Virus record (IMG/VR): IMGVR_UViG_3300029813_000617
Span: 27,231 to 91,230 of that record
Length of the DNA stretch: 64,000 nucleotides
Source of the DNA: a virus
Reading direction: 5' to 3' (one strand)
Under the pieces are notes generated by a model that saw nothing but the letters and a program-made list of their open reading frames with translations, did not search any database and was not told where the DNA came from. The position numbers and the translations under genes are program-made. Below, piece by piece: positions 5,144 through 21,808 of the stretch. Positions within the stretch are counted from its first letter, which is position 1. Each line of letters starts with the position of its first letter.

Positions 5144-5162
5144 TACTGTTCACCTCAGGACC

Positions 5163-5190
5163 ATTCTACACCAAACTGGAAGTTAGTCAA
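5163..5190 (-). promoter_or_regulatory. sigma70-like promoter for the polyprotein
   Basis: TTGACT-16bp-TAGAAT, followed by GAGGTG RBS and ATG at 5143. Confidence 0.6.
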
Positions 5191-5288: not shown

Positions 5289-5759
5289 CTATTTTTCAAG
5301 CCTTAAGATCCAAGTCGTGGATTCATCGCTAAGTCCAAACCCGCACTTCTCAAAGAGCTTTATCGATCGAGTATTATGACTGGAGATGGACGCCCGGAGC
5401 TCATGTAGCCCCAGCTCCCAAGCTTTTGCTATTGTCGCTCTCAACAACTTCTCTCCTAAACCCTTACCCTGCGAAATGGGAGAGATACAAACTCCTATCT
5501 CTGCTCCGCTCACTCCAGCAGACTGTCGTAGCTGGCTATAACCGAAGAACCAACCCGGACGGCAACCTATGTAGATGCGCCACTCGGACTGTTCTAAGTA
5601 CTTGCTAAACCAAGCCTTCTGCTCTTCCACGGTGATAGGTCTAGGATCTCGTAGCCACCTGTACACTTCAGGGTTGCTACGTGTCAATCGCACAAACTCG
5701 AGTGTTCCCTCGCTCAGGGGTTCTAAGATGATATCACCAGCCAGTATTGATAACATCAA
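5289..5759 (-). CDS. GNAT family N-acetyltransferase (PseH-like)
   Basis: QGKGLG acetyl-CoA motif; N..SIKLFEKCGF; adjacent to a DegT aminotransferase. Confidence 0.8.
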   Translation of the reverse strand: MMLSILAGDIILEPLSEGTLEFVRLTRSNPEVYRWLRDPRPITVEEQKAWFSKYLEQSEWRIYIGCRPGWFFGYSQLRQSAGVSGAEIGVCISPISQGKGLGEKLLRATIAKAWELGLHELRASISSHNTRSIKLFEKCGFGLSDESTTWILRLEK

Positions 5760-6843
5760 TCACCTTTTCGATATCCTCATCTGATAGACCCAGGTGCAAC
5801 GGAAGAGAAATCAACCTCTCAGAACAAAGTTGTGCCACGGGAGTCTCACTTATAAGACCACCATAGATAGAGTAGGAGTTGTTCGGTATATAATGGACTC
5901 CTGGCTCGATACCGTTCCCTTTCAGCTTTTTTATGAGGCCATTTCGGTTTCTTGCTTGGATCCAAAAAAGATGCTGAGCACAGGTTCTAGTAGGATCTGA
6001 TAGGGGCATCTTAATCACAATGTCTCTATGAATCAAACCCTCGCTGTACATCACTGCGATCTGCCTGCGTCGCTCGTTTCCTGCTTCCAGTACCTTGAGC
6101 TGGGCTAAGCCAATAGCAGCGATTACGTCATTCATATGATACTTGTAGCCTATCTCAGTAACATCATACTGCCACGCGTAGGCTCCAGTATCCTCCTCAG
6201 TACGTCTCCAAGTATCCTTGTCTATGCCTAGCCATCGTAGTCGCTTGGCCCTTTCTGCATATTTGCGACTCGAGGTAGTTAGCATTCCGCCATCAGCCGT
6301 AGGGAGATTTTTGACAGCGTGGAAGCTGAAACAGGTCAAGCCAGAACCCCCGATAAGGCGATTTATGTAGGTGCTCCCACAGGCATGAGCGGCGTCTTCG
6401 ATAACAGTAATACCCAAGTGTCTGGCAGGCTCTTGCAACATAGCAAGGTCACAAGGCCAGCCCCCAAAGTGGACACACATAATAGCCTTAGTCTTCGGAG
6501 TGATTAGCTTCACTACAGACGCCGGATCAATGTTACACGTCCTAGCCCTAACATCAGCCCAGATAGGGGTTGCCCCACAGTATCGAATCGCATGATTAGT
6601 AGACACAAAAGTAAGTGGGGTCGTTATTACCTCATCACCAGGTCCCACTCCAACTAGCAAGAGAGCTAGGTGCAAAGCAGCTGTACCTGAGTTGAGAGCA
6701 ACTGCATACTTCGCTCCTACGTATTCAGCAAATGCTTTCTCAAACCCGGCGGTCTTGGGTCCCAGGCCAATCCAGCCCGACCTGAGAACTTCCTCGACCG
6801 CTTTAATAGCCTCTTCTGTAATGTATGGCTTAAACAACTGCAC
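5734..6843 (-). CDS. DegT/DnrJ/EryC1/StrS family sugar aminotransferase
   Basis: NSGTAALHLAL, IEDAAHA, FSFHAVKNL (PLP lysine), GGML, SLPLH. Confidence 0.93.
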   Translation of the reverse strand: MQLFKPYITEEAIKAVEEVLRSGWIGLGPKTAGFEKAFAEYVGAKYAVALNSGTAALHLALLLVGVGPGDEVITTPLTFVSTNHAIRYCGATPIWADVRARTCNIDPASVVKLITPKTKAIMCVHFGGWPCDLAMLQEPARHLGITVIEDAAHACGSTYINRLIGGSGLTCFSFHAVKNLPTADGGMLTTSSRKYAERAKRLRWLGIDKDTWRRTEEDTGAYAWQYDVTEIGYKYHMNDVIAAIGLAQLKVLEAGNERRRQIAVMYSEGLIHRDIVIKMPLSDPTRTCAQHLFWIQARNRNGLIKKLKGNGIEPGVHYIPNNSYSIYGGLISETPVAQLCSERLISLPLHLGLSDEDIEKVIDVINTGW

Positions 6844-6846
6844 CTC

Positions 6847-7542
6847 TCAGTCCTCCCACGGAGTAAAGTCTTTGTTCCAATAGTTGTCACTGGATTTATG
6901 GATCTTATCTGCCAGAGTGATTGGGACATGCTCTATCTTGAAATGTTGTGCAATTCTGAACCAATAGTCCCAATCTGCCGTCGCGGAATAGGAAGCACCT
7001 GGGTGAGAATATCTCCCGTGCTTATTTCTGAAATATCCCACTTTATCAATGACCTCTCTGCGATGCATTACTGCCAAGACTGCTATGAGATTTGTGCGTT
7101 TCATCATCTCCATATCAAAATCGCGAGATAGATCACGCCTGGCAATCTCTCCCTGCCCATATAGGTTTCTGTGCCAAACATAGTCACAAAAGGCTAGTCC
7201 GACGCCTGGATGTGCGTCTAAGTAAGCACTCATAATCTCTAAGAACTTGAGTTTGTAAGTGTCATCATGGTCAAGATAGCAAAAGTACTTCCCACGAGCA
7301 ATCCTCATACCGTCATTCCTAACACACTCGCCCTGCCTTAGATATGGCCCCGCCTTTTTGATATAGATGATTCTGGAATCATCAAACTGCTTGATTACTT
7401 GTTCAGTGTTGTCAGGAGAGACGTCATCAATGATAATAAGCTCGAAGTTGGGCATGGTTTGGAGTAACACGCTTCTAATAGATCTCTCGATGAAGCGTGC
7501 TCCTTTGTAGGTAGGCATTATGACAGATACTAAGGGGTTCAT
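6847..7542 (-). CDS. Glycosyltransferase family 2
   Basis: VSVIMPTY, IIDDVS, LDHDD, DWDYW. Confidence 0.9.
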   Translation of the reverse strand: MNPLVSVIMPTYKGARFIERSIRSVLLQTMPNFELIIIDDVSPDNTEQVIKQFDDSRIIYIKKAGPYLRQGECVRNDGMRIARGKYFCYLDHDDTYKLKFLEIMSAYLDAHPGVGLAFCDYVWHRNLYGQGEIARRDLSRDFDMEMMKRTNLIAVLAVMHRREVIDKVGYFRNKHGRYSHPGASYSATADWDYWFRIAQHFKIEHVPITLADKIHKSSDNYWNKDFTPWED

Positions 7543-7544
7543 TA

Positions 7545-8666
7545 TTACTCTCTTGCTATTCTGATGATTTGGCAAACCCTACTGATCTCTCTCTGACTCA
7601 CAGAGGTGCCAGTAGGCAGACAGAGCACTTGCTGAGTTAGGAGATCAGTCTCTGGCAACAACAGGCCCTCGTAAAAAGGGGAAGAGTGATACGGCTCCAT
7701 GCGATGGCAGCCTGGATAGAAGTAACGTCGAGCAAGTACATTCTCGGCATGCAGAACCTCAACTAGGTGATCCCGACTGATACCAGAAATCGCCTCATTG
7801 ATCTCTAAAACGATGTACTGATAATTACACTTCTCGGTTTCGTCATAGGCTAGGAGCTGAATTCCAGGTATGCCCTCCAACTCCTCTCGATATCGCTTAT
7901 AGTTGCGGTAGTTGACAGCAACAAACTCACTAAAACTCTCCAGTCCCGTCAGCCCCATTGCTGCCGATATCTCACTCATCTTGCCATTAGTGCCAACGCT
8001 AACAACGTTATCATAGCCTGCAAAACCAAAGTTCTTCATCAAGCGAACCCTGGCAGCTAAGTCATCATCGTTGGTAGTTATCGCCCCACCCTCGAAAGTA
8101 TTGAGAATTTTTGTCGCATGGAAACTAAACATCTCAGCATTGCCAAAACTACCAACCATTTGCCCTTTGTGCGAACATCCAAAGGCATGGGCAGCATCAA
8201 ACAGGAGCTTTAGACCTTGTCGCTGTGCAAGCTTAGTTAACACTTCTATATTACAGGGCCGTCCCCATACATGAACGCCGATAATGCCAGTAGTACGTAA
8301 TGTGATCAGTCGCCTCACTTGATCTGGATCTATGTTACAAGTGTAAGGATCAATATCGCAGAAGACAGGCGTAATTCCCAGCCACTGCAAAGCATGAGCT
8401 GTAGCAATAAAGGTAAATGAAGGCACAATGACTTCGCCAGACAGCCCCAATGCTCGGATAGCGACCTCCAGCGCAACAGTACCATTACAAGCAGCAACAC
8501 AATGCTTGACTCCTAAAAGGTCAGCAACGCGCTGCTCGAATTCCTGCACATAGCGACCCCTGTTAGTCAACCAGTGTCTATCCAGGAGATCGTTGATACG
8601 CTCTAGTAGACATTCACGACTGCCGATATTAGGACGACCGACGTGTAGTGGACTCATAATAGTCAA
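7545..8666 (-). CDS. DegT family aminotransferase, VioA/DesI-like (dTDP-4-amino-4,6-dideoxyglucose transaminase)
   Basis: WLTNRG, NGTVAL, FDAAHAFG, SFHATK, NFGF, NGKMSE, RRYFYP are typical of the VioA subgroup. Confidence 0.88.
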   Translation of the reverse strand: MTIMSPLHVGRPNIGSRECLLERINDLLDRHWLTNRGRYVQEFEQRVADLLGVKHCVAACNGTVALEVAIRALGLSGEVIVPSFTFIATAHALQWLGITPVFCDIDPYTCNIDPDQVRRLITLRTTGIIGVHVWGRPCNIEVLTKLAQRQGLKLLFDAAHAFGCSHKGQMVGSFGNAEMFSFHATKILNTFEGGAITTNDDDLAARVRLMKNFGFAGYDNVVSVGTNGKMSEISAAMGLTGLESFSEFVAVNYRNYKRYREELEGIPGIQLLAYDETEKCNYQYIVLEINEAISGISRDHLVEVLHAENVLARRYFYPGCHRMEPYHSSPFYEGLLLPETDLLTQQVLCLPTGTSVSQREISRVCQIIRIARE

Positions 8667-9313
8667 ACGGCATCAACCTTTCGTATAACCCTGGCAGGAA
8701 CCCCATAGGCCACCATATTATCGGGGACATATCTTAGCACAACAGCGCCAGCCCCCACCAGGGAACCCCTACCGATAGTTACATGCTCTATAACTATTGC
8801 TCCGATGCCAACCCACGCAGCTGAACATACCCTTACTCCGCCAGCCAGACAAACTCCTGGGCAAATGTGAACTCCATCACCTATGATGCAGTGGTGACCA
8901 ATACTAGTGCAAGAATTGATTATTGCGTTCTCTCCGATCGTTGCCCCAGGTTTTATCACTGCCCCAGCCCCAATCACAGTACCTGAGCCGACAGGCACGT
9001 CAGCTGCGATGACAGCACTGGGATGAATGGCGGTAGCCAATCTAAAGCCACTATCACGAACCAGTTTGGACAACCTTAGTCGTGCTCTGCAGTTCCCGAA
9101 CGCAAGAATACAGTACTCGACACCCATTTCCTTGAGATTGTCTAATTGTTCCTTTCCACCAAGAATAAAGGCTTCACAGAACTCTATACCACGACGCTCG
9201 GGATTCACATCGTCGAGAAATCCTACAATCTCGTACTCGCCCTGCAAGCGTACAATGTCGGCAACCACTAAAGCGTGTCCTGAAGCACCCCAGACCACCA
9301 ACTTGCGTTTCAC
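8663..9313 (-). CDS. NeuD/PglD/VioB-like hexapeptide-repeat sugar acetyltransferase
   Basis: WGASGHA..V, GFLDD, IHPSA, hexapeptide repeats, GVPAR. Confidence 0.9.
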   Translation of the reverse strand: MKRKLVVWGASGHALVVADIVRLQGEYEIVGFLDDVNPERRGIEFCEAFILGGKEQLDNLKEMGVEYCILAFGNCRARLRLSKLVRDSGFRLATAIHPSAVIAADVPVGSGTVIGAGAVIKPGATIGENAIINSCTSIGHHCIIGDGVHICPGVCLAGGVRVCSAAWVGIGAIVIEHVTIGRGSLVGAGAVVLRYVPDNMVAYGVPARVIRKVDAV

Positions 9314-9319
9314 GAGGTA

Positions 9320-9448
9320 CTATCTCCTTTTCGATACGTCGCTATCAACCGAATACAGATGAACATCTTTGCACCAACGAAGCACTTTACAGATTTCGAG
9401 ACCGACTTCTGTGCCTCCTGGAAACACCAAAACTCTGTAGGGTCTCAC
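9320..9448 (-). pseudogene. Truncated N-terminus of an ATP-grasp-type sugar-cluster protein
   Basis: 42-aa ORF VLVFPGGTEVGLEI with RBS and GTGA overlap with the upstream stop; resembles N-termini of much longer proteins. Confidence 0.45.
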
Positions 9449-10047
9449 ACTCCTGCCTCTGAAGGTAGGATGCGCTGGCAAATAAGCATATTGGGAACCT
9501 CCTGAACTCTCTCCCATTCAGGATTATTAGTTAGCACCTGGTTTACGGCCTTTGCAACGCTTTTCCACTCAATGTCATGGAAGGCAACATGACCACCCAC
9601 AACAACCCATTTTAGGAATCCGCAGTCACTAAGAACTGTTGCGGTGTCATGACCACCGTCTATGAAAAGTAAACCTACTGGCTCCCAATCTAACTTAACA
9701 GCATCCAGGGAGTTCATCTCGTGAACTTCAATCTTATGTCTCCAAGGCTTCACATTCCGCTCAAAAATGTCGCGAGTATCGGGTTTTTTTGAGGGTACAA
9801 TTCCCCGCCCTGTTTTATCTCTGGGAACTCTACCACCCCTCGGAGCTTTCACAAGAAAGTAATCAATGCAGATCACTTTTCTCGCCACAGGAGCCATTGC
9901 AACGGTTGATTTGCCGAAATAGCTACCAACCTCCAGCACAACTTGATCCCGCGCAAGGCGCTCTAACACCTCAGCCTGTGCCAAGGATAACCAGCCGAAA
10001 ACTTTAGCTATTCGCTGAGATAACGATATCTCCGCCATAGTACTCAC
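9445..10047 (-). CDS. Class I SAM-dependent methyltransferase (Methyltransf_24-like)
   Basis: VLEVGSYFGKST, FIDGGH, FHD. Confidence 0.85.
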   Translation of the reverse strand: MSTMAEISLSQRIAKVFGWLSLAQAEVLERLARDQVVLEVGSYFGKSTVAMAPVARKVICIDYFLVKAPRGGRVPRDKTGRGIVPSKKPDTRDIFERNVKPWRHKIEVHEMNSLDAVKLDWEPVGLLFIDGGHDTATVLSDCGFLKWVVVGGHVAFHDIEWKSVAKAVNQVLTNNPEWERVQEVPNMLICQRILPSEAGV

Positions 10048-10922
10048 TCCCCAAAAATCTCTAGTTCCTTAATGACGTATTTGCACCACTTACCAAATGC
10101 TAGATCTTGATACCACACTACCTGAGCAAGTTCTCCCATTTGCAATAGCTTCTCCACCGAGGAGGAGAAAGAGTTCAAGATATCCTCAGCTTCCTCAGCC
10201 GAACTCGCATAGAAACTCATTTGATCCCAGTCCAGGAACGCTTTGAAAGGGCGAGTATCTATGTCACTGATAAGTAAAGGCACTATCCCTAACTGCATTG
10301 CCTCATAGAACCTAAAGGAAGTTGGCCCATAGCCTCGCGGGCTGAGGGCGATATAGGACTGGAGCATCTGGTTGACAAAGAAACCAAGACTTTTGACGCT
10401 GCCGCGTATGTCAGTATCATCTCTCTTGCCTAGAAGGCACTGCATCTCGAATCGGATCGTTGGGTATGTCCCCAACCTCCCAACAAAAGAGGCTAGCCAC
10501 TTTTTTCTCGGCTTAGGAGAAGGAGTCTTGTATGGATAAACCAACAAGGGCACATCGAAACTTTTTCCTCTGCGGGACGAGAAAAACTTGGTGATTCTAC
10601 CAAGATCAACTAGAGGGCCTGCAGAGTCCTGGCAGATTGTAAAGGTCCTATCCTCATTGAGAGTTCGTTCTAACACTTGCTGCTGAAGGAATTCCAGTCC
10701 CGTCTTTCCATGACTGTGATTCCAGTGATACCAGGTCCAGTATATGGGAAGATAATGCCAATCAGCAACACCAGGTCGATTCGTGACAAATCCTGGGTTC
10801 TGCTCGAGAAATCTAAGGAAATCTTGCTCAATGCCATAGCTTCCTTTGTTATGTGCAGGATAGGCAAATACGGTAGATTGTGGTTGGAGCTCAGGAGGTA
10901 CTGGCAGAACGAATATCTTCAC
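10044..10922 (-). CDS. Exostosin-family (GT47-like) glycosyltransferase
   Basis: SFVG, LSPRGYGPTSFRFYEAMQLGIVPLLISD. Confidence 0.8.
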   Translation of the reverse strand: MKIFVLPVPPELQPQSTVFAYPAHNKGSYGIEQDFLRFLEQNPGFVTNRPGVADWHYLPIYWTWYHWNHSHGKTGLEFLQQQVLERTLNEDRTFTICQDSAGPLVDLGRITKFFSSRRGKSFDVPLLVYPYKTPSPKPRKKWLASFVGRLGTYPTIRFEMQCLLGKRDDTDIRGSVKSLGFFVNQMLQSYIALSPRGYGPTSFRFYEAMQLGIVPLLISDIDTRPFKAFLDWDQMSFYASSAEEAEDILNSFSSSVEKLLQMGELAQVVWYQDLAFGKWCKYVIKELEIFGE

Positions 10923-11011
10923 TTCAACGACTCCATCCGCATCTTTTACACAGGGGTAAGAAGCGTTCTCCCCTGCTTAGTCTTTCGTATACCTCTTTGT
11001 ATGGCTAAACA

Positions 11012-11698
11012 TCAATTCCCCTTAATCAGGTCAGCACACCAGAGGCAGAACAGAGAGCCTTTTAGTCTGGTCAGTACCTGTTCCGTACCAGGATTTGGAT
11101 AAAAAAAAGCCTCTTCTACCACAGAGAATTCTGGTAGTGCAGCTAAGACTTGAGATTTGGTGAAAATCCTGTGAGCATTGAAGCAGAGCATGGATGTATG
11201 GCTTATAGGTACACTTATTATGAAGTGTCCTCCTGGCTCAACTACTCGGGAAACCTCTTTGAATGCTTTGATGCTGCCATACGGGTCTAACTTGTCGCCA
11301 TACCGACCTAACCCAACATGCTCTATTACGCACAAGCTACACAAGAGTTCCACGGAGCCATCGGCAACAGGAAGATTGGTGATTGAAGCTCGCCTGCAAG
11401 TCAAGTTAGGTAAAGAGACTGGAAGGGGCCTTATATCAAAACTAGTAGTTGGGAACAACCGAGAGATGATCCCTACGAGAAGTGCAGTTGAACCCACGTC
11501 AACTACACTCTTTGGATGAATCTCAACGATTCTCTTAAAAGCCCACGTATCCTGACGGAAGCAAAATCCATCCACATGAGTCACAGCGGTTTTCTGGCCG
11601 AGACACGGGTATCGAATTCCTCCCTTCTCTGCACCAGGAAGTTTCATGTAGGCTATGTACTCTCTGCGATACTCCTCCATCATCTCTTCCCGATTCAC
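11012..11698 (-). CDS. DUF268-like / class I methyltransferase-fold protein
   Basis: VVDVGS, SLCVIEHVGLGRYGD.LDP.G, FNAHRIF. Confidence 0.75.
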   Translation of the reverse strand: MNREEMMEEYRREYIAYMKLPGAEKGGIRYPCLGQKTAVTHVDGFCFRQDTWAFKRIVEIHPKSVVDVGSTALLVGIISRLFPTTSFDIRPLPVSLPNLTCRRASITNLPVADGSVELLCSLCVIEHVGLGRYGDKLDPYGSIKAFKEVSRVVEPGGHFIISVPISHTSMLCFNAHRIFTKSQVLAALPEFSVVEEAFFYPNPGTEQVLTRLKGSLFCLWCADLIKGN

Positions 11699-12291
11699 TA
11701 TTCTGTCTCCACTTGATACGAAAACACCAGAACTCCTCGATGTATCTTCTGGAAAGATCCCTTTCCCGTGTAATCCAAACAGACAAAACTCGAACTAATT
11801 CTGTATACAGCAAAGTCCACCTCAGCTCTTGTAGGCCAGTTATAGCCACACACCTCGGGATCTCTCTTTCCAAAATCATCTACATCGTCGATTGCGATAA
11901 CAAGTGAAGAGCTAGGACAATATTGACGAATAGTTTCTAGCTCATCTAACAAAGGGCACGGAAAATCTGCACCGCCAGTGCCACTGCCACTAAAGTGCCC
12001 ATCTAGCCAGAAGAAGATTCGATCTTCGGAAGAACACAATGGAAAGGTCTGCTTACGAAAGATCTCGTAGCTTTTACCCAGGAAGACCTGCTGATTCGCC
12101 CCTGTTGGATACTGAGACACCGCTAACCTATAAAGCCCTAGTGCAACTTCAACAGTATAACAGCGCTCAAATATACCTGACTCAAGAGCCCTTCGGAAAG
12201 AGTACCCCAGATGTGTCCCTGACTCGATGAATACATTGCACTGAGCATCCCTAGCAATCTTCAAGATTTGAGATGTGATAGTGGACATCAT
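11698..12291 (-). CDS. Putative methyltransferase-fold protein
   Basis: FIESGTHLG, FWLDGH, CPLLDEL, IDD. Confidence 0.6.
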   Translation of the reverse strand: MMSTITSQILKIARDAQCNVFIESGTHLGYSFRRALESGIFERCYTVEVALGLYRLAVSQYPTGANQQVFLGKSYEIFRKQTFPLCSSEDRIFFWLDGHFSGSGTGGADFPCPLLDELETIRQYCPSSSLVIAIDDVDDFGKRDPEVCGYNWPTRAEVDFAVYRISSSFVCLDYTGKGSFQKIHRGVLVFSYQVETE

Positions 12292-12295
12292 CTAC

Positions 12296-12943
12296 TTACT
12301 TAGGGTCTCGGCAGATCGCAACAACTGGCGATGCTTTTGTGTCAGTATCCAAGGAAGGACCGAGAGTGTGATTAGAGAGCCTAACGTCACCGAAATATGA
12401 GAGAAGGACATCTCGAAACTCTCCAGCAGTCCATTCTCGAACATGCCGTATGTTTCCTGGGGGGCCCTCGCTCTGTGCTCCTCCTCTAGAGTTTCTGTTC
12501 GGCGACGAGATGTAAAGAGTTCCTGGGTCTTTGAGAATGCGGCGTAGCTGACTCAGCACCTTCTGATAATCCTTGACATGCTCAATGATCTCAATGGCAG
12601 CGATGATATCAAAGCCAGCGTCGGGCAGAGAAGAATCCTTTATATCCCCACACAGAAAGCGAACGTTCTTCAAGGGGAAACACTTCCTAGCAAACTCATA
12701 GCCACGAGGGACTATTTCGACTCCAGTCACCGACCGAGCCTCTTGGGCCAGAATGGCTGTACCTAAACCTGAACCCGATCCGACATCACAAACTACCCTA
12801 TCTACAGACTCACGTGCAACAGCCTCGTAGATTTCTCGCTGGGGGTAAGAGAATAACACCCTACTTTTCCCCCAACGATCGAACATAGTCTCTACAGGAT
12901 TACATTCCATCTCGGGATTTTCTTTGTACATCATGGTCCTCAC
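12296..12943 (-). CDS. Class I SAM-dependent methyltransferase
   Basis: DVGSGSGLG, EIIEHV, ISSPN, HVREW. Confidence 0.88.
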   Translation of the reverse strand: MRTMMYKENPEMECNPVETMFDRWGKSRVLFSYPQREIYEAVARESVDRVVCDVGSGSGLGTAILAQEARSVTGVEIVPRGYEFARKCFPLKNVRFLCGDIKDSSLPDAGFDIIAAIEIIEHVKDYQKVLSQLRRILKDPGTLYISSPNRNSRGGAQSEGPPGNIRHVREWTAGEFRDVLLSYFGDVRLSNHTLGPSLDTDTKASPVVAICRDPK

Positions 12944-13734
12944 TTTACAGGAGTATTTGGGAGACTGACTATCTCCCGCCAGTTCTTGTTGCGGTGTATC
13001 TCAAGACCACCAAACTGCATATTTACGAAACCTAGCTTTTTGGAGAGTTGCTGCTCACCCCAGTTATTTTCGTTCCTATAATACAGTTCTACCAGACCTA
13101 GGGCGATGTTGCTGCGAGCAAGCAGTTCTTCCAGGAACTTGGCACGATATACTGATAGCCAAAGAACAACTGGCCAGCACCTGCTCTTCAACACTCCATC
13201 TTGGAAGCGTGTCCACCATAACGTATAGTCCTGTTGTCGAGTAGGTGTAAGGTGTACTCCTCTGAAAGAAACCTGACCAGGGTCAACGCTTATATGGGTA
13301 AGGTTGCCTAGTTGGAAGTTGTGAGCTCTTCCGATTAGCGGATAGCCAACCAGGCGTATCTGCACTAACTCTTTGTCTCTTTCAAAAGCATCGCAACTAT
13401 GCTTAAGGAGTTGCTCCAACTCAGAAACATACACATTGTCATCTAAGTGAATGAAACTAAGATCGGAGCCTTGTTCATGAGCCTTGCGTACAGCAGAGAG
13501 AAGAGCCGCAGTGCCACCAAGACGCTTCAGACGCTGAATGTAGGTAATGTTCGGCTTGTTATAAATCTCCTTGCCTACTCCATACCAAGTGGATCCAGGC
13601 TTTGGTAAATCGTCAACAACAATGTGAGGATAAGTCTCGCCAACAACCTTCCTTAGTGAGGCTAGGGAGTACCGAGCAAACTGAGCACGCTGCTGACTGT
13701 GAATGTAGCTCGGCGTCACAATTGTAAGCTGCAC
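12940..13734 (-). CDS. Putative GT-A fold glycosyltransferase
   Basis: TIVTPSY, IVVDD, HLDDN; GTG start after GGGGAG RBS. Confidence 0.6.
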   Translation of the reverse strand: MQLTIVTPSYIHSQQRAQFARYSLASLRKVVGETYPHIVVDDLPKPGSTWYGVGKEIYNKPNITYIQRLKRLGGTAALLSAVRKAHEQGSDLSFIHLDDNVYVSELEQLLKHSCDAFERDKELVQIRLVGYPLIGRAHNFQLGNLTHISVDPGQVSFRGVHLTPTRQQDYTLWWTRFQDGVLKSRCWPVVLWLSVYRAKFLEELLARSNIALGLVELYYRNENNWGEQQLSKKLGFVNMQFGGLEIHRNKNWREIVSLPNTPVK

Positions 13735-13738
13735 CTTG

Positions 13739-14239
13739 CTATTCTCCCCTTGAGGCTTCGCACAAAAGATCCCCATCTATAATGGATCCATTGCGCGAGG
13801 GAACTACTCTGCAGCTTATGATGCTGAATCCCGCCTGCTCTACAAAATGTCTTAGGCTCTCCACGTCAAATAGGTTGTGGTTTAGATACCCAGGTCCTCT
13901 ATTCTGCATACCCAGAATGCTGTGAAGTCCCGTGCTCGCTCGGAAAGCCAAGTCTCCTGCAAGCCAACGCCTCATATGTGTAGTGATGTTAGGGCATCGA
14001 ATTTTCAACCGCCCTCCAATCTTCAATACTCTGAGCCACTCTCTAAGCGTCGCAGGAAAATCTGAGGCAGGTATATGCTCAACCAAGTGCGATGAGTAAA
14101 CCTCGTCTACACTCTCGTCAGGATAATCCAGATGTCTTACATCCATTCTCTGATCAGCTTTAGAGTAATACTTATCTATGTTCACGTAGCCCTTGAGAAG
14201 AGCTCCGCCACAACCCAGGTTCAGTTTTAGAGTACACAC
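13739..14239 (-). CDS. SAM-dependent methyltransferase (type 11-like)
   Basis: LNLGCG, YVNID, SHLVEH, RVLKIGG. Confidence 0.85.
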   Translation of the reverse strand: MCTLKLNLGCGGALLKGYVNIDKYYSKADQRMDVRHLDYPDESVDEVYSSHLVEHIPASDFPATLREWLRVLKIGGRLKIRCPNITTHMRRWLAGDLAFRASTGLHSILGMQNRGPGYLNHNLFDVESLRHFVEQAGFSIISCRVVPSRNGSIIDGDLLCEASRGE

Positions 14240-15222
14240 TATGAAACCCTCCTAATCATCTGAGCTATACGCATGTCCCAAGTGTGACGAGCAAGTACTT
14301 CCCTTCGCCCTGCAGTAGCAATTTCCTCACGTTCCTCCTCGTGGGCAAGATAGTACTTGGCTAACTCTATAGCTTCAGGTACTGAGTTGAACCACACTAG
14401 GTGTTTCCTGTTCTCAAAGAATGTCTCTATGCCAGGTACATAGTGAGTTAAGTGAAAAGCCCCACTAGCCATCGAGTTCATGGCACGTCTCCACGATGCG
14501 TACATATGAATATCGTTCACACCATTGACACCCAGGGTAACTTTTGTGCGAGAGCAAACTTTAGAGAATGTGCCACCAAAGACAAATGGGTGCAGGTACA
14601 CATCTCCCCTCTCTCTCAGATACACCCAACTCCCGATAGTTCCAAAGATATGTAAACAGAATCCCTCACCAAGAATAGTTTCTAGCAACTGGCGGCGAAC
14701 CTTGTAGCCTGTATTCTGAGGAAGAGGGATATTAGATCCCATAAAGACTAGATCCCAGGTCTTCTCTTCCTTTTTTGGGTAGAATACTTCAGGATCGACA
14801 CCGCAACCCCACCAATCTCCAACATACTTCACACCCGCTGCTTCATATATGTTGCGACACCTCGCGTCATCATTGTTGAACAAGGTGCAATCTGCGTACT
14901 GACCTATATCAACTACCCATGGTTGCAAGTTCCACCGAAAGTCTCCATAGAAATGAATGACATAGGTATCCAAGCTCTCCTTGATTGCTTCGACAGTAGC
15001 TCCAGAAACGTTTCCGCACTTCCCAAGGTGAATCAGGCGAGGCTGAAACCGCAGAGCAGCCTCGACTAGCATCTCATTCATTCGAATGACACCGTGTTTG
15101 GCAGCGAGAGATCCATTATCGAAAGTTTCTAGGGTAGCGATTTTGCGATACGCCTTTATTATACCATTCACGTTGTCTGCTGAGTAGGCAGACGAGATAG
15201 TATCAACGTATAGAACTTTCAT
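14239..15222 (-). CDS. GT-B glycosyltransferase (CgeB-like)
   Basis: DLVFMGS, R...MASGAF.LT, YYLAHEEEREEIA..G...HTW..R. Confidence 0.8.
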   Translation of the reverse strand: MKVLYVDTISSAYSADNVNGIIKAYRKIATLETFDNGSLAAKHGVIRMNEMLVEAALRFQPRLIHLGKCGNVSGATVEAIKESLDTYVIHFYGDFRWNLQPWVVDIGQYADCTLFNNDDARCRNIYEAAGVKYVGDWWGCGVDPEVFYPKKEEKTWDLVFMGSNIPLPQNTGYKVRRQLLETILGEGFCLHIFGTIGSWVYLRERGDVYLHPFVFGGTFSKVCSRTKVTLGVNGVNDIHMYASWRRAMNSMASGAFHLTHYVPGIETFFENRKHLVWFNSVPEAIELAKYYLAHEEEREEIATAGRREVLARHTWDMRIAQMIRRVS

Positions 15223-16118
15223 ACAGATGCCTTTCCCGCAACTACTGCGTCGATTATGCGCTCCCCTACTCGTTTCCAAGTATGTTCCTGGACTTTCTCC
15301 AGGCCAAGCTTGCAAAGGCACTCTCTTTCTACATCATGGGACAGATAGTAGTCAATAAGATCAAGTTCCTCTGTAGGACTCCTGAACTGAGGTACGGCAT
15401 CTCCGAACAAATCCTCTATTCCGGCGTTCCAGGCCGAGATACAGAATCCACCGCTCGCCAATATGTCGAATACTCGGACTGGAACAAAACCCTGGTCTGA
15501 CATTTCGTGATACTGGTCATTCAGACTTATCTTGACTGAGCCATACAAATCAGCCAAGTCGTCATAAGGGAAAAACGCACCCCCATAGTATTTCTCAGGT
15601 AGAAGACTTTTCCATTGGCCACTCCACGCCTTTATCCTGTAATCTCCAGATAGCAAGGGGGTCAGAGCTCGTCGCCCCCAAGTTCCCTTGGGTCCCTGTC
15701 CTGGCCTGGGATTAGCTACAAGAGCTATGTCGCAGCCGAAATCCTTACGCTCTATGGGGGGAGTCTTGGAGCTAGCCCCAACCATCGTCTCAACATTTTG
15801 GCAACCCATATCACGGAGGACTTGAGTGAATGGTGAAGAGAGACAGAACACTTTGCCAAAGCGTTGCAGATAACTAGGGTTCCTCCCAGCAGAATTTGGG
15901 TGATCATAGAGCCAGGCGATAGTATAGATGTCGGGTAACCTTTGAAAATCATAACCCAATTGAAAGAAGCAAGCATCTGGATCCTTGTCTGAGACTTCGA
16001 CTCCTAGTGACTGTAGAGCCCTAGTGATCTCCTGTCTTACCCAATAGTCACCCCATAACAGAGCGGTGGATGGTGGTTTGGCATACTGCATATCACTCGA
16101 GAGGACATATATCCTCAT
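15219..16118 (-). CDS. GT-B glycosyltransferase (CgeB-like)
   Basis: WGDYW, ISLND, RVFDILASGGFCIS, HTWKR. Confidence 0.8.
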   Translation of the reverse strand: MRIYVLSSDMQYAKPPSTALLWGDYWVRQEITRALQSLGVEVSDKDPDACFFQLGYDFQRLPDIYTIAWLYDHPNSAGRNPSYLQRFGKVFCLSSPFTQVLRDMGCQNVETMVGASSKTPPIERKDFGCDIALVANPRPGQGPKGTWGRRALTPLLSGDYRIKAWSGQWKSLLPEKYYGGAFFPYDDLADLYGSVKISLNDQYHEMSDQGFVPVRVFDILASGGFCISAWNAGIEDLFGDAVPQFRSPTEELDLIDYYLSHDVERECLCKLGLEKVQEHTWKRVGERIIDAVVAGKASV

Positions 16119-16119
16119 C

Positions 16120-16980
16120 TTACACGCCCCCTGGCATCTTTCCGCTATCAGGGCACCAAGTGTACTGCCCTATATCTCGAACTGTCACCTTGGTTTCATA
16201 GTGGCCGGGGTTTCCTAGTTTACCTTGCTCAGTTAGTTCTCTAACTCTCAATACGGCAGCATTATGAGCAGACGTTTTGAAGTCTCTATACATTGCCCCA
16301 TCTTGCATCTCAAAGTTTTCGTCAGGCAACTCTCTGCAGTTAGCATTTCTCACATAGGCACTTCTGAGTCCATGATGCTGCTGCCTCGTATGGAGCTCGC
16401 TATCCTCTAGGCCATATATACTGTGTTCACAGAAATACCCCAGCCTCACGAGTGTGGCAGCACTCATAACATAGAGTCCCCCAGGATTAGGGCAATTATC
16501 CAGGAAAACTCCCTCAACCTCTTTCCAAAGAGTCGGGGTAAACCACGTGTGTCCCCAGGGCTGACCAAACCCCTGCACGTTGTTGCCAACTATCCCGAGA
16601 CCAGGGAGCTCCGAAGCATAGCAAAGATAACTAAGCCAGTACGGGCTAACCTCTATGTCATTATCTATACAACAGTACCAAGCAGCTTCGCCTTCCGAGA
16701 CCTTTAGCCCAAAGTTCTTCCCTACTGCGATTCCTCTATTCTCGGGCAACAAAATCAATCTATCGATCAAGTCTGCTCGCCTGAGCTTCTTCAAGTTCGC
16801 AACGGTTTCATCCCAACTACCATTATCAACAACTGTTAAGACGTGAGGTAGGAAAGTATTCGCGAAGACCGAGATCAGGCTCTGGCCAGTACATTTCCAT
16901 CTGTTAAAAGTGACCATCGTAACGGAAGCCCTCTGTTCAGACTTCTTAGCATCCGCTACGAACTGTTCAGGGCTAAACAC
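16120..16980 (-). CDS. Glycosyltransferase family 2
   Basis: VTFNR, VVDNGS, IDND, YGLED. Confidence 0.85.
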   Translation of the reverse strand: MFSPEQFVADAKKSEQRASVTMVTFNRWKCTGQSLISVFANTFLPHVLTVVDNGSWDETVANLKKLRRADLIDRLILLPENRGIAVGKNFGLKVSEGEAAWYCCIDNDIEVSPYWLSYLCYASELPGLGIVGNNVQGFGQPWGHTWFTPTLWKEVEGVFLDNCPNPGGLYVMSAATLVRLGYFCEHSIYGLEDSELHTRQQHHGLRSAYVRNANCRELPDENFEMQDGAMYRDFKTSAHNAAVLRVRELTEQGKLGNPGHYETKVTVRDIGQYTWCPDSGKMPGGV

Positions 16981-16985
16981 CTAGT

Positions 16986-18815
16986 TTATCCTTCTTCCTT
17001 GGATTGTGCGAGTATCCCTGTCCACCCAGAAGCCGCTTCTTTTTTCCTCATTTTTGATATGTGACTACCAGGCCCAGACGTCCTGACATCTCGCGCTGCA
17101 TCAGGCCACCTGAAATCCATATCAACCTTCTTGCTCAGAGCAGGAAGTTTCTCGGTCCACAGCTGTCTATACCGAGCAAGACTTTCAGGCGGAATCCACT
17201 TGCCAGTCTTCCGTTGAGTATAAGCCCACAAATGAGTCAACACAGCTGTCGGGCAGTAAATGTTTTTCAGGCCCGCCTCGAGACACCTTAAGCCGTAGTC
17301 TACATCTCCATAGCCAAGCTTGTACCCTTCATCTATTAGACCTACTAGTTCTATAGCAGATTTCTTGATAAGCAGACATGCACCTGTGTTAAAGGGAACC
17401 TCTCTCACTTCTAGTGATTCTGGGGTATCTGCAGAAGCTCCGTCAAAGGGATGGAAAGGATTCGTGCGATGAATGCTCCCTCCTATGTGCTGAATTCTCC
17501 CATCAGCATACAATAACTTGGCCCCAACTGTTGCCACGTCATCAGGTTGAGCTAATCGAATCATTTCCCTGAGCCAACCTCTAGTTCTCACAATGGTGTC
17601 ACTGTTCAGAAGTAGACAGTATTCTCCTCTAGAGTGCCAGATCCCCTGGTTGTTTGCAGCAGCCCATCCGAGGTTTTCCTCATTGGCTATCAGTGTCAGA
17701 CAGTTCTGTTTTTCAAGCCATTCCACACTTCCATCCTTACTTCCATTGTCAACCACGATCAATTCGAAGGAGCGGATAGTTTTATCCAGAACACTTCTGA
17801 CGCAATCGGCTGTAATCTCGAGAGTATTGTAAGTGACAACTATTACGGAAGTTAGTCTCGATACTATCTTGGGAGGCCACCGCTCCAGACCCTCCCGTAT
17901 CAGAAGCTGACTCCGAGGCAACCGAAGATGTTTAGATGTCCCGAGATCTTTGGGTATTTCGAATGTACTAGAAGAAAGCCCTTCGGAACTTTTGGGACTC
18001 TTTGGAGCTGAGTTCTTCCCCTGGAACAGATCCTCGTCACTACGCAACTCTGGCCACTGGGATACCAATCTTTGAAGGTTATAATCTCCCCGACCTGCTG
18101 ACTCTGGTCCTAAACCATTCTCGAAGTGACACAATATGGCTTTGGGTTGATACACAACCTTCCAGCCTGCTTTGCGAGCACGCCAACAAAAATCAGTATC
18201 CTCGAATTGGCCACCCTCGAAGCCCTCATCGAAGCCTTTAAGGTCTTCCCACACTTTACGACGGATCAGAATACATGCTCCTGTCACAGCGTTTAACTCA
18301 CGTCGCACGTTAGCTTCTTCACAAGAGAGGCTCTTTCCTCGAAAGGGATGATAGGGATGTTTTTGACTGGTACGAGCTACTCCTGCATGTTGAATTGTGC
18401 CTCCCAGTGGCTTCCCTTTTGTCTCGGGATAGACTAGTAAGGCACCTACAAGACCAATCCTGGGATCAGCCTGTAATTCCTGCTGCATGTGAGTAAGCCA
18501 CTGCTGCATTGGCTCCGTATCAGCATCCAGCAAACAGATATCACCAGGAACTTGCTTGACCGCCCAGTTAATGATGTCAGGGAAGTTCCTGCGAACCTTG
18601 GATCTGAGGATTACAGCTTGTCCTGAACGCTTGAGTTCACTCAAGTACTTTCGAAGCTCAGTACTAGGGGAGCAGTCATCGGCGATATAAAGCCGATAGG
18701 TTGCCTTGGTATGCTCGCGAAGAGCGTGGATGCAGCGACGCAAATACTCTACCCCATTGTACGTTGGGATCACAATGGAGATTACATCAGTAGTAGCATC
18801 GGAAGAGGGGCTCAT
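16986..18815 (-). CDS. Tandem two-domain glycosyltransferase family 2
   Basis: Domain 1: SIVIPTYN...DADT...TGAC...EDTDFC. Domain 2: SVIVVTYN...NSDT...TGAC...DVDYG. Confidence 0.9.
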   Translation of the reverse strand: MSPSSDATTDVISIVIPTYNGVEYLRRCIHALREHTKATYRLYIADDCSPSTELRKYLSELKRSGQAVILRSKVRRNFPDIINWAVKQVPGDICLLDADTEPMQQWLTHMQQELQADPRIGLVGALLVYPETKGKPLGGTIQHAGVARTSQKHPYHPFRGKSLSCEEANVRRELNAVTGACILIRRKVWEDLKGFDEGFEGGQFEDTDFCWRARKAGWKVVYQPKAILCHFENGLGPESAGRGDYNLQRLVSQWPELRSDEDLFQGKNSAPKSPKSSEGLSSSTFEIPKDLGTSKHLRLPRSQLLIREGLERWPPKIVSRLTSVIVVTYNTLEITADCVRSVLDKTIRSFELIVVDNGSKDGSVEWLEKQNCLTLIANEENLGWAAANNQGIWHSRGEYCLLLNSDTIVRTRGWLREMIRLAQPDDVATVGAKLLYADGRIQHIGGSIHRTNPFHPFDGASADTPESLEVREVPFNTGACLLIKKSAIELVGLIDEGYKLGYGDVDYGLRCLEAGLKNIYCPTAVLTHLWAYTQRKTGKWIPPESLARYRQLWTEKLPALSKKVDMDFRWPDAARDVRTSGPGSHISKMRKKEAASGWTGILAQSKEEG

Positions 18816-20283
18816 TGATCTCCACCTTTGTGAGTGGGATGTGGGGGACTAGATAGGACTTGAAGATAGGCTTGCCTTGCATGGCCTTCTTGGGTCCACA
18901 CCAGTTGAAAGTTAGGGTTACAGCGTCAGGCAGAAGACGTCTCAGTTTGAGTTCGATACCCGAGTTACGCTCAGCCTCTCTAACTGAGATGATATCATCA
19001 GCCAAGGTAGCATAGGGATCTTCCACAAGTGCAGCTGGAGGGAGACCTCGATAGAGTTCCCAAGAACGCTCTGATATCCCCTCATGTCGAGTCTCTCGTT
19101 GAGACCAAGGACCTCTCCAGTTCACAGGTACAGCTACCAAGTCAAGCAGAGGCACATAGTCGAAGGCAGGGCCACGCTTATCATAGACTCGGTGGATCTT
19201 GTCAGAAGGGAGCTTGATGACGCGCAGGAGAGCCTGAGTGACCTTTGGATTCTCCTCATCGTCTCGGATAACCAGGTCACAATCGTGAGGTTTGCGAAGC
19301 TCGTAGACTGCGGATCCTGTGTGGCTAATATAGGAATCAACGATGACGAAGGGGACAAGGCGAAGTTTGGCCTTGCGCAGTTCTCGGTCCAAGTCATCAA
19401 CCATCTCATGTGGCAGGCCGCGCCGCTTCATTTCCTGCAAGGCGAAAAAGTGCGCATTCACGACATCTTCCCTGCTGGCCCCTTCGCCTTTAGCATAGAG
19501 CTGGTGAAGAGAGTCATGATAAGTTACTAGTGCCTCGTCATCCTTGATCTCTCGAGCCCTGGCATAGAGGCTCTTCTTAATCGGAATCTCAATGCCCTCG
19601 CCCTCCAGGGATCGCCTAGCTCTATCAAAGAGTTCCCTCGCATGCCGCTTGTAGCCGCTAGGGTGAAACCTTGCAGCCTCGCGCTCTATGAGTTCTTTGA
19701 GGATTGCACGATACTTCTGCTCAATGAGCTCGAGGGAATAGGCAGGCCCTTTGCCTTGCTGCTTAGTAGACCACCAGGCCAGCAAGATTCGCATGTCATC
19801 ACGTAGAATGGCATTGCCCCGCTTGGTCTTGGGAACTTTCGTGGGATCGTAAGAGGTTAGATCTCTGATCTTCTCCAAATGGAGTTCTTTGGGTGCTGGG
19901 TCAAGCCACTTCCAAGACCTGAGCCAAGTCTGAACTTTGGTATCAGGGGGAACTTGAGTTCGCTTAGGAGGATCATAGGTTTCCAGAACCTGGACTTCAT
20001 AGGCATAAAAGTTCAGGCTGCCTGGCCACCATTCATCCCTTTCCCTCTCAGTGATGCGATGCTTGCTACGGAGACCCCTGAATTCGCCCAGAGTTATCGT
20101 CTTAGGGCTGCCCAGAACGATCTTGCCATAACACTTTAGCTCCTGGTCTTGCTGGTCAGCGAATAGATAGATAGGGATACGGACATATTTGTAAAACCGC
20201 TTCGCCCTGATGATCATGGTCTTGTTGACGGTCATAATCATCTCGGCGTGATGCTTAGGACTTAGATTGAGACCTATTTGCAT
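18787..20283 (-). CDS. Multidomain head-module protein (ASCH-like N-terminus; pol-beta-type nucleotidyltransferase motif)
   Basis: GLNLSPKHHAEMI...KTMIIR at the N-terminus; ISHTGS...HDCDLVIR matches the GS...DxD signature. Confidence 0.55.
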   Translation of the reverse strand: MQIGLNLSPKHHAEMIMTVNKTMIIRAKRFYKYVRIPIYLFADQQDQELKCYGKIVLGSPKTITLGEFRGLRSKHRITERERDEWWPGSLNFYAYEVQVLETYDPPKRTQVPPDTKVQTWLRSWKWLDPAPKELHLEKIRDLTSYDPTKVPKTKRGNAILRDDMRILLAWWSTKQQGKGPAYSLELIEQKYRAILKELIEREAARFHPSGYKRHARELFDRARRSLEGEGIEIPIKKSLYARAREIKDDEALVTYHDSLHQLYAKGEGASREDVVNAHFFALQEMKRRGLPHEMVDDLDRELRKAKLRLVPFVIVDSYISHTGSAVYELRKPHDCDLVIRDDEENPKVTQALLRVIKLPSDKIHRVYDKRGPAFDYVPLLDLVAVPVNWRGPWSQRETRHEGISERSWELYRGLPPAALVEDPYATLADDIISVREAERNSGIELKLRRLLPDAVTLTFNWCGPKKAMQGKPIFKSYLVPHIPLTKVEINEPLFRCYY

Positions 20284-20470
20284 GAACTTCCTCAACTTGT
20301 GTTATAAAAGAATCGAGTTCAGCATTGGTCAAATAGATGCTACATATTCCCTTAGGGCTTATGCAGCGAATCATGTACTCACCACAGTCAAAACCAGGCC
20401 CCTGGTTCTGAAAAAGTTGCAAGGTCGTCCTATCCTGGAAACCTTCGTAAAACGCCATCTTCAGCCTCAT
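20255..20470 (-). CDS. Small hypothetical protein
   Basis: GAGGGG RBS; fills the gap directly after the portal gene. Confidence 0.55.
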   Translation of the reverse strand: MRLKMAFYEGFQDRTTLQLFQNQGPGFDCGEYMIRCISPKGICSIYLTNAELDSFITQVEEVHANRSQSKS

Positions 20471-20482
20471 TTTGCCCCTCTC

Positions 20483-21808
20483 CTATCCTCGCTTCAAACT
20501 GACTCCGAGACCTAGCTGCTCGAGTAGAGCTCCAAAGACACGTTTGCCCAAGTCTGCGTCTATCCATTCGTTCTTTTGAGCAGTATCCAGGGCCTGAGTA
20601 ATGCGACTCATCGCGCCACCAGTTCGCTGGAGATCCCTGAGAGAAATCTTGGGCATGATGATGTCAAGTGCTGTGTCTACATCCTTATCAATTATCCCGT
20701 GGATGATCTTCTGGTCAATCACAAAGTTCAGAATCTCCCGTAAAAATCCTTCGATTTCAGACTGGCGTGCACTGAGAGATTGATAAGCTGGTGCAGCCAT
20801 AGACTCAGCAATTGCTCTGCCTGCAGTGGCGGGTTCGCTGAAGAAGTGGACGGGGATACCCATGCCTCCTAGCGCATAGTTGCGGATGAGCATAGCTTCA
20901 TCAGTGATGTTCTCAGCCTTTAGACCTATCTCCATAGGCTCCCATTTGACCCACTCATTATGGACGAGGAAGGCCCCTGGTTTGGGTGGATTGGCTTCCA
21001 GCTGAGCGACTTGCCTCTTAATTTTGGCATCATCAGCACCCCTCATCTCGACATCCCATATCCAGCCAGCCTCATGAGTCATTCGCTCTAGAGAGTTGAA
21101 GATAAGCTGGTCTAGACAGTCGATGAAGTCAGCTGCGGCAAGAAGGTCGCTAAGGCCCCGGCTTGCATCCCCTACACGGTTGACCGAAAAGTAGAAACAA
21201 TCACCGACTCGCCTTTGGTAGACGGAGGGTGAGTCGAGATCTTCGGATCTTAGTCTCGCCTCTACACCTCGCTCTACATGGATGACTTTGAGTTCCTTGT
21301 TCACACCGGGCTGATCCGTCGATCTGAGCACGACCCTATCATGACGCAACAAGTTCGTGATATCTAGATGGACATCCTCGACTTGGAAGGGGGAGATATA
21401 GGCAAGCTCCACATCCCCGTTGTGCCTGTTCACAGTTGCTGGAACGGTCACTTCGCCATAGAGACTGAGTTCGAAGGCTAACAGAGGCAGGAACCTATCC
21501 AGGTTATGAGTAGGGTTTCCCCAGAACTTCTCGATGCAGGACTGAACAACTGGAGATTTGGCCTTTACACGAACCCCACCGCCAACTACATAGTCTCGCA
21601 TGAGTTCAACGCTTCTATGTGCCAGGGGGTTAAAGCGATAGAGATAGAGGGAAACCTGGAGCATCCGCTCGTGGTCATAGTCGGGCAGATTGCGAGGAGC
21701 TGTATCTGTGAGACGACGCCACTTCCAGGCATCTGTGTCCACTTCTGGTAGTGATGTGTCTACTGCCTCTAAGAGCCGTTTTCTCTGAACTTTTCCCAAA
21801 ACTGGCAT
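20483..21808 (-). CDS. Phage portal protein
   Basis: 441 aa downstream of terL; YRFNPLAHRSV...ELSLYGE...RGLSDL...GIPVHFF...RQ pattern. Confidence 0.85.
   Translation of the reverse strand: MPVLGKVQRKRLLEAVDTSLPEVDTDAWKWRRLTDTAPRNLPDYDHERMLQVSLYLYRFNPLAHRSVELMRDYVVGGGVRVKAKSPVVQSCIEKFWGNPTHNLDRFLPLLAFELSLYGEVTVPATVNRHNGDVELAYISPFQVEDVHLDITNLLRHDRVVLRSTDQPGVNKELKVIHVERGVEARLRSEDLDSPSVYQRRVGDCFYFSVNRVGDASRGLSDLLAAADFIDCLDQLIFNSLERMTHEAGWIWDVEMRGADDAKIKRQVAQLEANPPKPGAFLVHNEWVKWEPMEIGLKAENITDEAMLIRNYALGGMGIPVHFFSEPATAGRAIAESMAAPAYQSLSARQSEIEGFLREILNFVIDQKIIHGIIDKDVDTALDIIMPKISLRDLQRTGGAMSRITQALDTAQKNEWIDADLGKRVFGALLEQLGLGVSLKRG

Follow-up and report, generated by a model that had tools for sequence, protein, structure and literature searches.

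What an uncultured tailed phage does with a large set of sugar enzymes placed among its head genes is the question raised by a stretch of viral DNA of 64,000 nucleotides (nt; referred to as the window), corresponding to bases 27231-91230 of the 91,230-bp record IMGVR_UViG_3300029813_000617. The enzymes are encoded at 5289-18815 of the window by 16 intact, tightly packed open reading frames (ORFs) of the minus strand, called the cassette here. The answer that we favour, by a modest degree, is the cytoplasmic glycosylation of virion proteins. It fits best because the enzymes are predicted to be all soluble and come without lipid-carrier or export functions, are apparently co-transcribed with the portal gene, are complemented by a glycosyltransferase (GT) coupled to the tail-tube gene, and belong to a module found beside capsid genes in two unrelated structural modules. 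Phage-encoded virion glycosylation is as a kind already known; what is new is the scale, the inclusion of amino-sugar modules, the location within the head operon, and a core module that appears to be mobile.

The 16 ORFs (an earlier note on this DNA had counted 15 genes) sum up to seven GTs, five methyltransferases, two aminotransferases, and two acetyltransferases, in agreement with the seven GTs, one of them tentative, the approximately five methyltransferase-fold proteins, and the two aminotransferase/acetyltransferase pairs listed in that note. Clear assignments by Pfam and NCBIfam were obtained for six GTs (one double GT2, two single GT2, two CgeB-type Glyco_trans_1_2, and one GT47), four methyltransferases, two DegT aminotransferases, one NeuD/PglB/VioB hexapeptide acetyltransferase, and one GNAT (the coordinates and matches are collected in the table below). 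The junctions are mostly overlaps or gaps of ≤5 nt, and the larger gaps within the cassette measure 89 and 131 nt. The GC content is 0.475, against 0.51 in the flanks, and at third codon positions (GC3) ~0.46 against ~0.55.

The tentative GT, of 278 amino acids (aa), scores below the PF00535 cut-off and belongs to a family carried by ~25 contigs, some members of which do score with PF00535 and bear a GT2 name. With SpsA as the top PDB match of the family profile and an invariant Asp pair (D112 D113), it can be described as a divergent GT2. For the 197-aa protein no family match was found by sequence. Its single-sequence AlphaFold model reached a predicted local distance difference test value (pLDDT) of 35, and a model built from a 25-sequence alignment (pLDDT 91.7) was used instead. 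Foldseek returned only class I S-adenosylmethionine (SAM) methyltransferases for the latter, the best being cation-dependent O-methyltransferases of the COMT/CCoAOMT type and Hen1 types, and the protein is counted as the fifth methyltransferase by this modelled fold. The 166-aa protein covers only the second half of the Methyltransf_11 model. In the case of the two CgeB-type GTs, the PF13524 model is matched over essentially its full length (positions 1-143 and 6-143 of 144), and a PDB sequence search with the CgeB-type GT gave no match. The real start of copy 1 is probably located about 30 codons downstream of the listed one.

The genes for the DesI/VioA-like aminotransferase and the VioB/PerB-like acetyltransferase are adjacent, overlapping by 4 nt. 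The aminotransferase scores 538 bits with TIGR04427 (under the cut-off of 650), and its by far top PDB match is DesI (2po3, E 3e-125), the enzyme forming dTDP-4-amino-4,6-dideoxyglucose. The acetyltransferase matches PerB (2.5e-37), PglB, VioB, and PglD in the PDB, all of which acetylate the C-4 amino group. In the second pair, the 369-aa aminotransferase stays below the cut-off of every NCBIfam equivalog model.

Searches of the 91-kb record, made with positive controls, revealed no member of the NTP_transferase (nucleotidyl-transferase) and 4,6-dehydratase families, no initiating phosphoglycosyl transferase of either family (Bac_transf; Glycos_transf_4, WecA/MraY type), and no Wzx-type flippase (PF01943). 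The pyrophosphorylase, dehydratase, and flippase whose lack the earlier note had remarked on are thus missing from the whole record, and RmlA and RmlB are likewise absent from it. As neither a pyrophosphorylase nor a dehydratase is present, the phage would depend on nucleotide keto-sugars made by the host, which supports the precursors that had been proposed. None of the 16 cassette proteins has a transmembrane segment (no 19-residue hydrophobic stretch exceeds 1.7), and the membrane proteins that mark a GtrABC-type serotype conversion (GtrA, GtrB, GtrC) are therefore not represented in the cassette. Judged from the encoded proteins, the set appears to be all soluble, without lipid-carrier or export functions.

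A scan for the strict sigma-70 consensus across the record gave 8 sites, against an estimate of about 1.2 expected, and seven of them are intergenic and face a gene. On the minus strand, such sites stand in front of the terminase, HNH (22502), 1507-aa (5190), and capsid (607) genes, and another one is found ahead of the gene that follows the tail tube. Between 22502 and 5190 the sole site is inside the portal gene, and promoter-like and terminator-like sites show no enrichment across 4500-22500. Because no intergenic consensus promoter and no excess of such sites is found in this interval, a single transcription unit seems to reach from the HNH gene across the portal and 502-aa genes to the last of the 16 cassette genes. 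The placement of the cassette inside the head operon, as suggested before, is hence strengthened by a transcription unit that is probably shared with the portal.

The eighth GT (383 aa) is encoded to the left of the window. It overlaps each of its neighbours by 4 nt, a connector-like gene upstream and the tail-tube gene downstream, and by this arrangement is predicted to be translationally coupled to the latter. Its ortholog occupies the same place in G001, a related phage, with 62.5% identity. A PDB sequence search with this GT gave no match.

When the cassette was compared by megablast with 50,697 phage records, no match was found, and the portal has a single match there (31%, Microcystis phage Mae-JY22) with an uninformative neighbourhood. 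A metagenome scan gave one 3.4-kb contig only, and a genome scan only G001, an 86-kb scaffold in a Guaymas-type metagenome-assembled genome bin, with a portal 66% identical. At the identical site, between a homolog of the 502-aa protein (492 aa) and a ligase-Dam-protease protein of 1343 aa, G001 carries 14 GT and methyltransferase genes. Seven cassette genes are common to both phages, with 47-74% identity, which is comparable to the 57-72% of the virion genes; both amino-sugar pairs are missing from G001, and other transferases and methyltransferases stand in their place. At their junction, the double GT2 gene and the 502-aa gene preceding it share 29 nt. The gene order and the 29-nt overlap are the same in G001, where the C-terminal domain of this GT2 is 74% identical, and a third assembly (L009) contains the portal, the 502-aa homolog, and the N-terminal GT2 domain with the MSPSS start and the same overlap. 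A chimeric assembly, raised in the earlier note as a possible undoing of its proposal, is ruled out by the recurrence of the junction in the independent assemblies L009 and G001; the junction is therefore real.

The portal belongs to a family of about 2,000 representative clusters (profile search). The distance from portal to capsid, determined in 80 IMG/VR loci whose portals are 27-41% identical, is mostly 1-3.5 kb, reaching ~6 kb where a polyvalent protein intervenes, and no homolog of a cassette gene is located between portal and capsid. By this comparison the cassette is a lineage-specific insertion. Its description as unusually elaborate for a tailed phage is borne out by about 60 more distant relatives of the same portal/capsid type, which have nothing at this site, and by the 1-4 GTs of the described actinophage systems. 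In one distant relative (L022:357-1526), a VioA/DegT-like aminotransferase gene is found directly upstream of the portal gene, which may point to more than one entry of sugar-tailoring genes into this head module.

A second carrier, the 58-kb viral contig L092, was reached via the family of the 197-aa methyltransferase. Its capsid protein (309 aa, phrog_212) is of another family than the one here, and the phage is unrelated. After the capsid gene of L092 come a fibre-like protein of 305 aa with a high content of Ala, Gly, Thr, and Ser, and a protein of 1192 aa in which a GT2, two CgeB-type domains, and a methyltransferase are fused (L092:5137-8715). These are followed by genes homologous to those of the short methyltransferase and the divergent GT2, a 431-aa fusion of the 197-aa-type and DUF268 methyltransferases (L092:9956-11251), a Methyltransf_11 gene, and further structural-looking genes. 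The fusions suggest that the cassette enzymes act together. The homologs are arranged nearly as in the cassette and share 52-72% identity with it. Parts of the cassette of the phage studied (G000) are closer to L092 than to G001, and the module therefore appears to have moved between lineages; in both L092 and the phage studied it is found in the head-gene region. It is tentatively proposed, with distinctly more doubt than the virion target itself, that the core, made up of the CgeB-type GTs, the divergent GT2, and four of the methyltransferases, serves to coat particles and is mobile as a module, which would insert in head-gene operons of unrelated tailed phages and diversify by gain and loss of transferases and amino-sugar genes into variable glycan serotypes similar to O-antigens. 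Complex virion glycocalyces would then be general in some environmental phages and not a curiosity of actinophages.

For the glycosylation of virion proteins the following scheme can be drawn, in which all the steps are inferred and only the enzyme classes are established. The cassette would be a phage-borne, soluble glycan-assembly line, made alongside the head proteins, which assembles, in the cytoplasm, a methylated oligosaccharide with N-acetyl-amino-sugars directly on the surface proteins of the virion. Activated keto-sugars, e.g. dTDP-4-keto-6-deoxy-glucose produced via RmlA/RmlB, would be taken from the host. The DesI/VioA-like aminotransferase and the VioB/PerB-like acetyltransferase would convert them to an N-acetyl-4-amino-4,6-dideoxyhexose donor, and the ArnB/PseC-like aminotransferase with the GNAT would provide a second N-acetylated amino sugar. 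A CgeB-type transferase may prime Ser/Thr of a structural protein, as CgeB does on the spore-crust CgeA, with the chain extended by the GT2 and GT47 enzymes and O-methylated by the five SAM methyltransferases. The tail would be served by the eighth transferase, encoded immediately before the tail-tube gene. The differences in gene content among relatives would result in differing glycan "serotypes".

The closest functional counterpart is found in mycobacteriophages, whose capsid and tail-tube subunits are glycosylated by GTs and an O-methyltransferase of the phage itself (Freeman 2023, cited in PMC11600133, PMC11256854, and PMC12619734). Virion glycosylation is cited in the same three sources for the actinobacteriophages Che8, Corndog, and cluster O/F1. 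In both cases GTs are encoded by the phage together with O-methyltransferase functions, and in the present one a GT is coupled to the tail-tube gene while the cassette belongs to the head operon. According to these sources, the actinophages have about 2-4 GTs and one methyltransferase, in contrast to eight GTs, five methyltransferases, and two aminotransferase/acetyltransferase pairs here; amino-sugar synthesis genes are not mentioned in them for the actinophage systems, and in the F1 phages the GT genes are placed near the 3' end of the genome and not inside the head operon. The actinophage glycosylation is demonstrated on virions, whereas the system described here is predicted from the genes. 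In mycobacteriophages the acceptor segment is recognisable as a C-terminal region; in the present phage the capsid domain shows no lineage-specific extension, and a Ser/Thr-rich stretch of the tail tube is suggestive.

The enzyme set also resembles the Mimivirus fibril-glycan cluster R135-L143, with the aminotransferase L136, the PglB-like acetyltransferase N-L142, five GTs, and a predicted methyltransferase (PMC9614988). A viosamine-type aminotransferase, a hexapeptide acetyltransferase, several GTs, and sugar O-methylation are common to both, and Mimivirus uses them to decorate its particle; however, it is a eukaryotic giant virus with its own 4,6-dehydratase (R141), while the present phage is a tailed one of ~100 kb without dehydratase or pyrophosphorylase. 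CgeB glycosylates the Bacillus spore-crust protein CgeA at Thr112 (PMC13577073), and this system (CgeD/Sps) also combines CgeB-family (PF13524) and SpsA-like GT2 enzymes, all soluble, for glycosylating a protein shell in the cytoplasm without a lipid carrier. It is a cellular system with another acceptor, though, and the similarity is at the family level only. The GT47 gene shares 30% identity with one of Synechococcus phage S-SKS1, which is part of a glycan island there and located amid sugar epimerases and transferases; the island is surrounded by auxiliary metabolic genes and placed outside the head operon.

Several points weigh against the virion as the target, the main weakness being that an acceptor cannot be named from sequence. 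No Ser/Thr-rich tail or loop specific to this lineage was seen in the capsid domain when it was compared with relatives without the cassette. The tail tube contains 18% Ser/Thr, with 13 of 30 residues in one stretch that is conserved in G001, which is suggestive and not diagnostic. Membrane-anchored polymers of the host can likewise be substrates of soluble GTs, as in the case of prophage TarP. The timing of expression, deduced from the operon structure alone, weakens the argument, and the promoters resemble ordinary host sigma-70 ones, including the one that starts the presumed-early plus-strand region. The provirus tag given to the record by IMG/VR, together with an estimated completeness of only 84%, weakens it further. 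No match to a Mycobacterium phage at E≤1e-3 was found by tblastn of four of the GTs against the 50,697 phage records; lacking detectable GT homology, the system would work like that of the mycobacteriophages without being a member of it. The earlier proposal of virion decoration with a methylated and acetylated glycan gains from the enzyme inventory, the tail-tube-coupled GT, and the capsid-adjacent module in L092, and is retained as a reading with a slight lead over doubt.

The provirus tag also bears on a possible remodelling of the host envelope, in which the soluble enzymes would hijack the host lipid-carrier machinery and alter the O-antigen, capsule, S-layer glycan, or teichoic acid, either to exclude other phages or to keep the progeny from sticking to debris. 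This can be considered because, besides the tag, peripheral GT2 enzymes need no membrane segment and can use host lipid-linked intermediates. The families are typical of bacterial surface-polysaccharide clusters (NCBIfam matches to TuaG, WcaA, Eps, and Hps), and the GC content, ~3.5 points under the flanks, is as would be expected of an acquired island. We nevertheless regard such remodelling as unlikely. There is no initiating transferase, flippase, polymerase, or membrane protein; neither a tyrosine integrase nor a serine recombinase/resolvase was found in the record; and no intergenic consensus promoter separates the cassette from the HNH/portal promoter. The module adjoins capsid or tail-tube genes in unrelated phages, and co-production with head proteins would leave little time before lysis for a change of the surface. 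The glycan might also be placed on another cytoplasmic target, namely a host protein, a small molecule, or the packaged polyvalent proteins flanking the cassette. The missing acceptor agrees with this as well, and the cassette is located between two pieces of a polyvalent head-protein region, with domains homologous to the 502-aa protein found within 895-1515-aa post-portal proteins of relatives. The L092 module is, however, flanked by capsid and fibre-like genes and not by polyvalent proteins, we know of no precedent, and the chance of such a target is rated somewhat lower again.

Least probable, to the point of being improbable, is a hypermodification of DNA, with sugars added to modified genome bases against restriction, like in T-even phages and the 5-hydroxymethylcytosine (5hmC) glycan clusters (Pyle et al.). 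Mono- to trisaccharides are indeed attached to DNA by phage GT-A/GT-B enzymes related to those for lipopolysaccharide and teichoic acid, and the clusters encoding them are in some cases near structural genes (bioRxiv 10.1101/2023.12.21.572611); GT-A-type enzymes of envelope-glycan origin are common to these clusters and the present one. The phage also invests heavily in DNA modification: besides the Dam part of the 1507-aa protein, it has two N6/N4 methylases and an NDT-like gene (window 28865-29290, minus strand). This possibility is weakened by the lack of a hydroxymethyl-base pathway and by the large enzyme set. Searches of the 84% complete record, with positive controls, found neither a thymidylate-synthase-type hydroxymethylase (PF00303) nor a C5 cytosine methylase (PF00145), and a search for Tet/JBP (PF12851), made without a positive control, gave no match; a 5mYOX/TET or ThyS-like enzyme in the neighbourhood is what defines the published clusters, and neither was found here. 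The 7-8 GTs, five methyltransferases, and two amino-sugar pathways exceed the mono- to trisaccharides reported for those clusters, and one GT is coupled to the tail-tube gene.

The record derives from a 136-kb parent contig. From 620 to 25636 of the window every ORF is on the minus strand, in the transcription order split terminase, HNH endonuclease, portal, 502-aa protein, the 16 cassette genes, and 1507-aa protein. Both terminase halves are also present in G001. The 502-aa protein gave no match in Pfam or PHROG searches and has a homolog (P0002) 86% identical; its N-terminus appears ASCH-like in an Atlas model, and a GS-x9-DxD motif, noticed by eye in the C-terminal half, resembles Pol-beta-type nucleotidyltransferases. 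The order to the left of the window is a 913-aa zinc-ribbon/protease-like/capsid fusion, two small connector-like genes, the 383-aa GT, the tail-tube gene, and the tape measure. The capsid fusion (L003:11806-14547, minus strand; L003 is a part of the record) has several N-terminal zinc ribbons, and 13 Glu-Pro repeats (residues 423-449) separate its protease-like part from the capsid domain. A leader of ~230 nt (window 320-610, minus strand) extends between the consensus promoter (607-579) and the start of the capsid gene, ending with a GC-rich hairpin and a T-run immediately before the ribosome-binding site; the hairpin could be an attenuator or an antitermination point for capsid expression. 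The plus-strand region 56691-64000, with a RuvB-like ATPase, an RlaP-type nucleotidyltransferase, and the two N6/N4 DNA methylases, is taken to be the early region. An archaeal host was considered, as G001 comes from a Guaymas Basin bin, and was judged unlikely because sigma-70-consensus promoters repeatedly precede the operons.

Table. Features of the cassette and its surroundings; positions refer to the window unless marked otherwise, and identities are to the proteins of G001 and L092.
Feature	Position	Strand	Matches and remarks
Terminase large subunit, split (ATPase gene and nuclease gene, two small ORFs between)	23071-25636	-	
Sigma-70-consensus promoter upstream of HNH gene	22474..22502	-	TTGACA-N17-TACAAT; last intergenic site before cassette
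Portal protein	20483..21808	-	phrog_10963 E 3e-29; same putative transcription unit as cassette
502-aa protein, upstream flank	18787..20295	-	true start probably ATG at codon 5
Double-domain GT2, 609 aa	16986..18815	-	PF00535 twice, E 1e-46
GT2, 286 aa	16120..16980	-	PF00535 E 6e-17; G001 ortholog 63%
CgeB-type GT (Glyco_trans_1_2) copy 2, 299 aa	15219..16118	-	PF13524 E 6e-17; 35% to L092 fusion-protein domain; absent from G001
CgeB-type GT copy 1, 360 aa as listed	14239..15321	-	PF13524 E 2e-25; G001 53%, L092 58%
Short methyltransferase-like protein, 166 aa	13739..14239	-	PF08241 E 9e-10; L092 65%, G001 31%
Divergent GT2-like, 278 aa	12940..13776	-	PF00535 score below cut-off
Class I SAM methyltransferase, 215 aa	12296..12943	-	Methyltransf_11, PF08241 E 3e-19; G001 56%, L092 54%
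O-methyltransferase-fold protein, 197 aa	11698..12291	-	AF2 model and Foldseek; L092 72%, there fused to DUF268 methyltransferase
DUF268/Methyltransf_11 methyltransferase, 228 aa	11012..11698	-	PF03269 E 6e-12; G001 68%, L092 64%
GT47 exostosin-like GT, 292 aa	10044..10922	-	PF03016 E 5e-17; G001 54%
Methyltransf_24 methyltransferase, 200 aa	9445..10047	-	PF13578 E 9e-12
Left-handed beta-helix sugar N-acetyltransferase, VioB/PerB/PglB/PglD type, 216 aa	8663..9313	-	TIGR03570 213 bits (curated cut-off 160.8)
DesI/VioA-like nucleotide-sugar C-4 aminotransferase, 373 aa	7545..8666	-	DegT, PF01041 E 3e-110
GT2, 242 aa, between both amino-sugar gene pairs	6847..7575	-	PF00535 E 6e-25
ArnB/PseC-like nucleotide-sugar aminotransferase, 369 aa	5734..6843	-	DegT, PF01041 E 5e-107; top PDB match ArnB 2e-73
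GNAT N-acetyltransferase, 156 aa	5289..5759	-	PF13302 E 1e-19; weak PseH-like match, 45 bits (cut-off 93)
Sigma-70-consensus promoter just past cassette, before 1507-aa gene	5163..5190	-	TTGACT-N16-TAGAAT; 3' limit of unit
1507-aa protein, downstream flank	620..5143	-	ATP-dependent DNA ligase, Dam methylase, C-terminal XkdF-type protease; PF01068, PF02086, PF14550
Eighth GT, 383 aa	L003:9354-10505 (genome 22354-23505, left of window)	-	phrog_7162; weak GT-B Glyco_trans_1_4 match

So far, only a few actinobacteriophages, whose gene sets for this purpose are very small, are known to have glycosylated particles. If the cassette does glycosylate the virion, the glycans built by tailed phages would equal those of giant viruses in elaboration, with methylated N-acetyl-amino-dideoxy sugars among their components, and would vary between close relatives. 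The cassette would in that case be a compact, all-soluble enzyme set for the glycosylation of proteins in the cytoplasm, and the resulting virion coats could affect adsorption, stability in sediment, grazing, and the recognition by host defences or antibodies.

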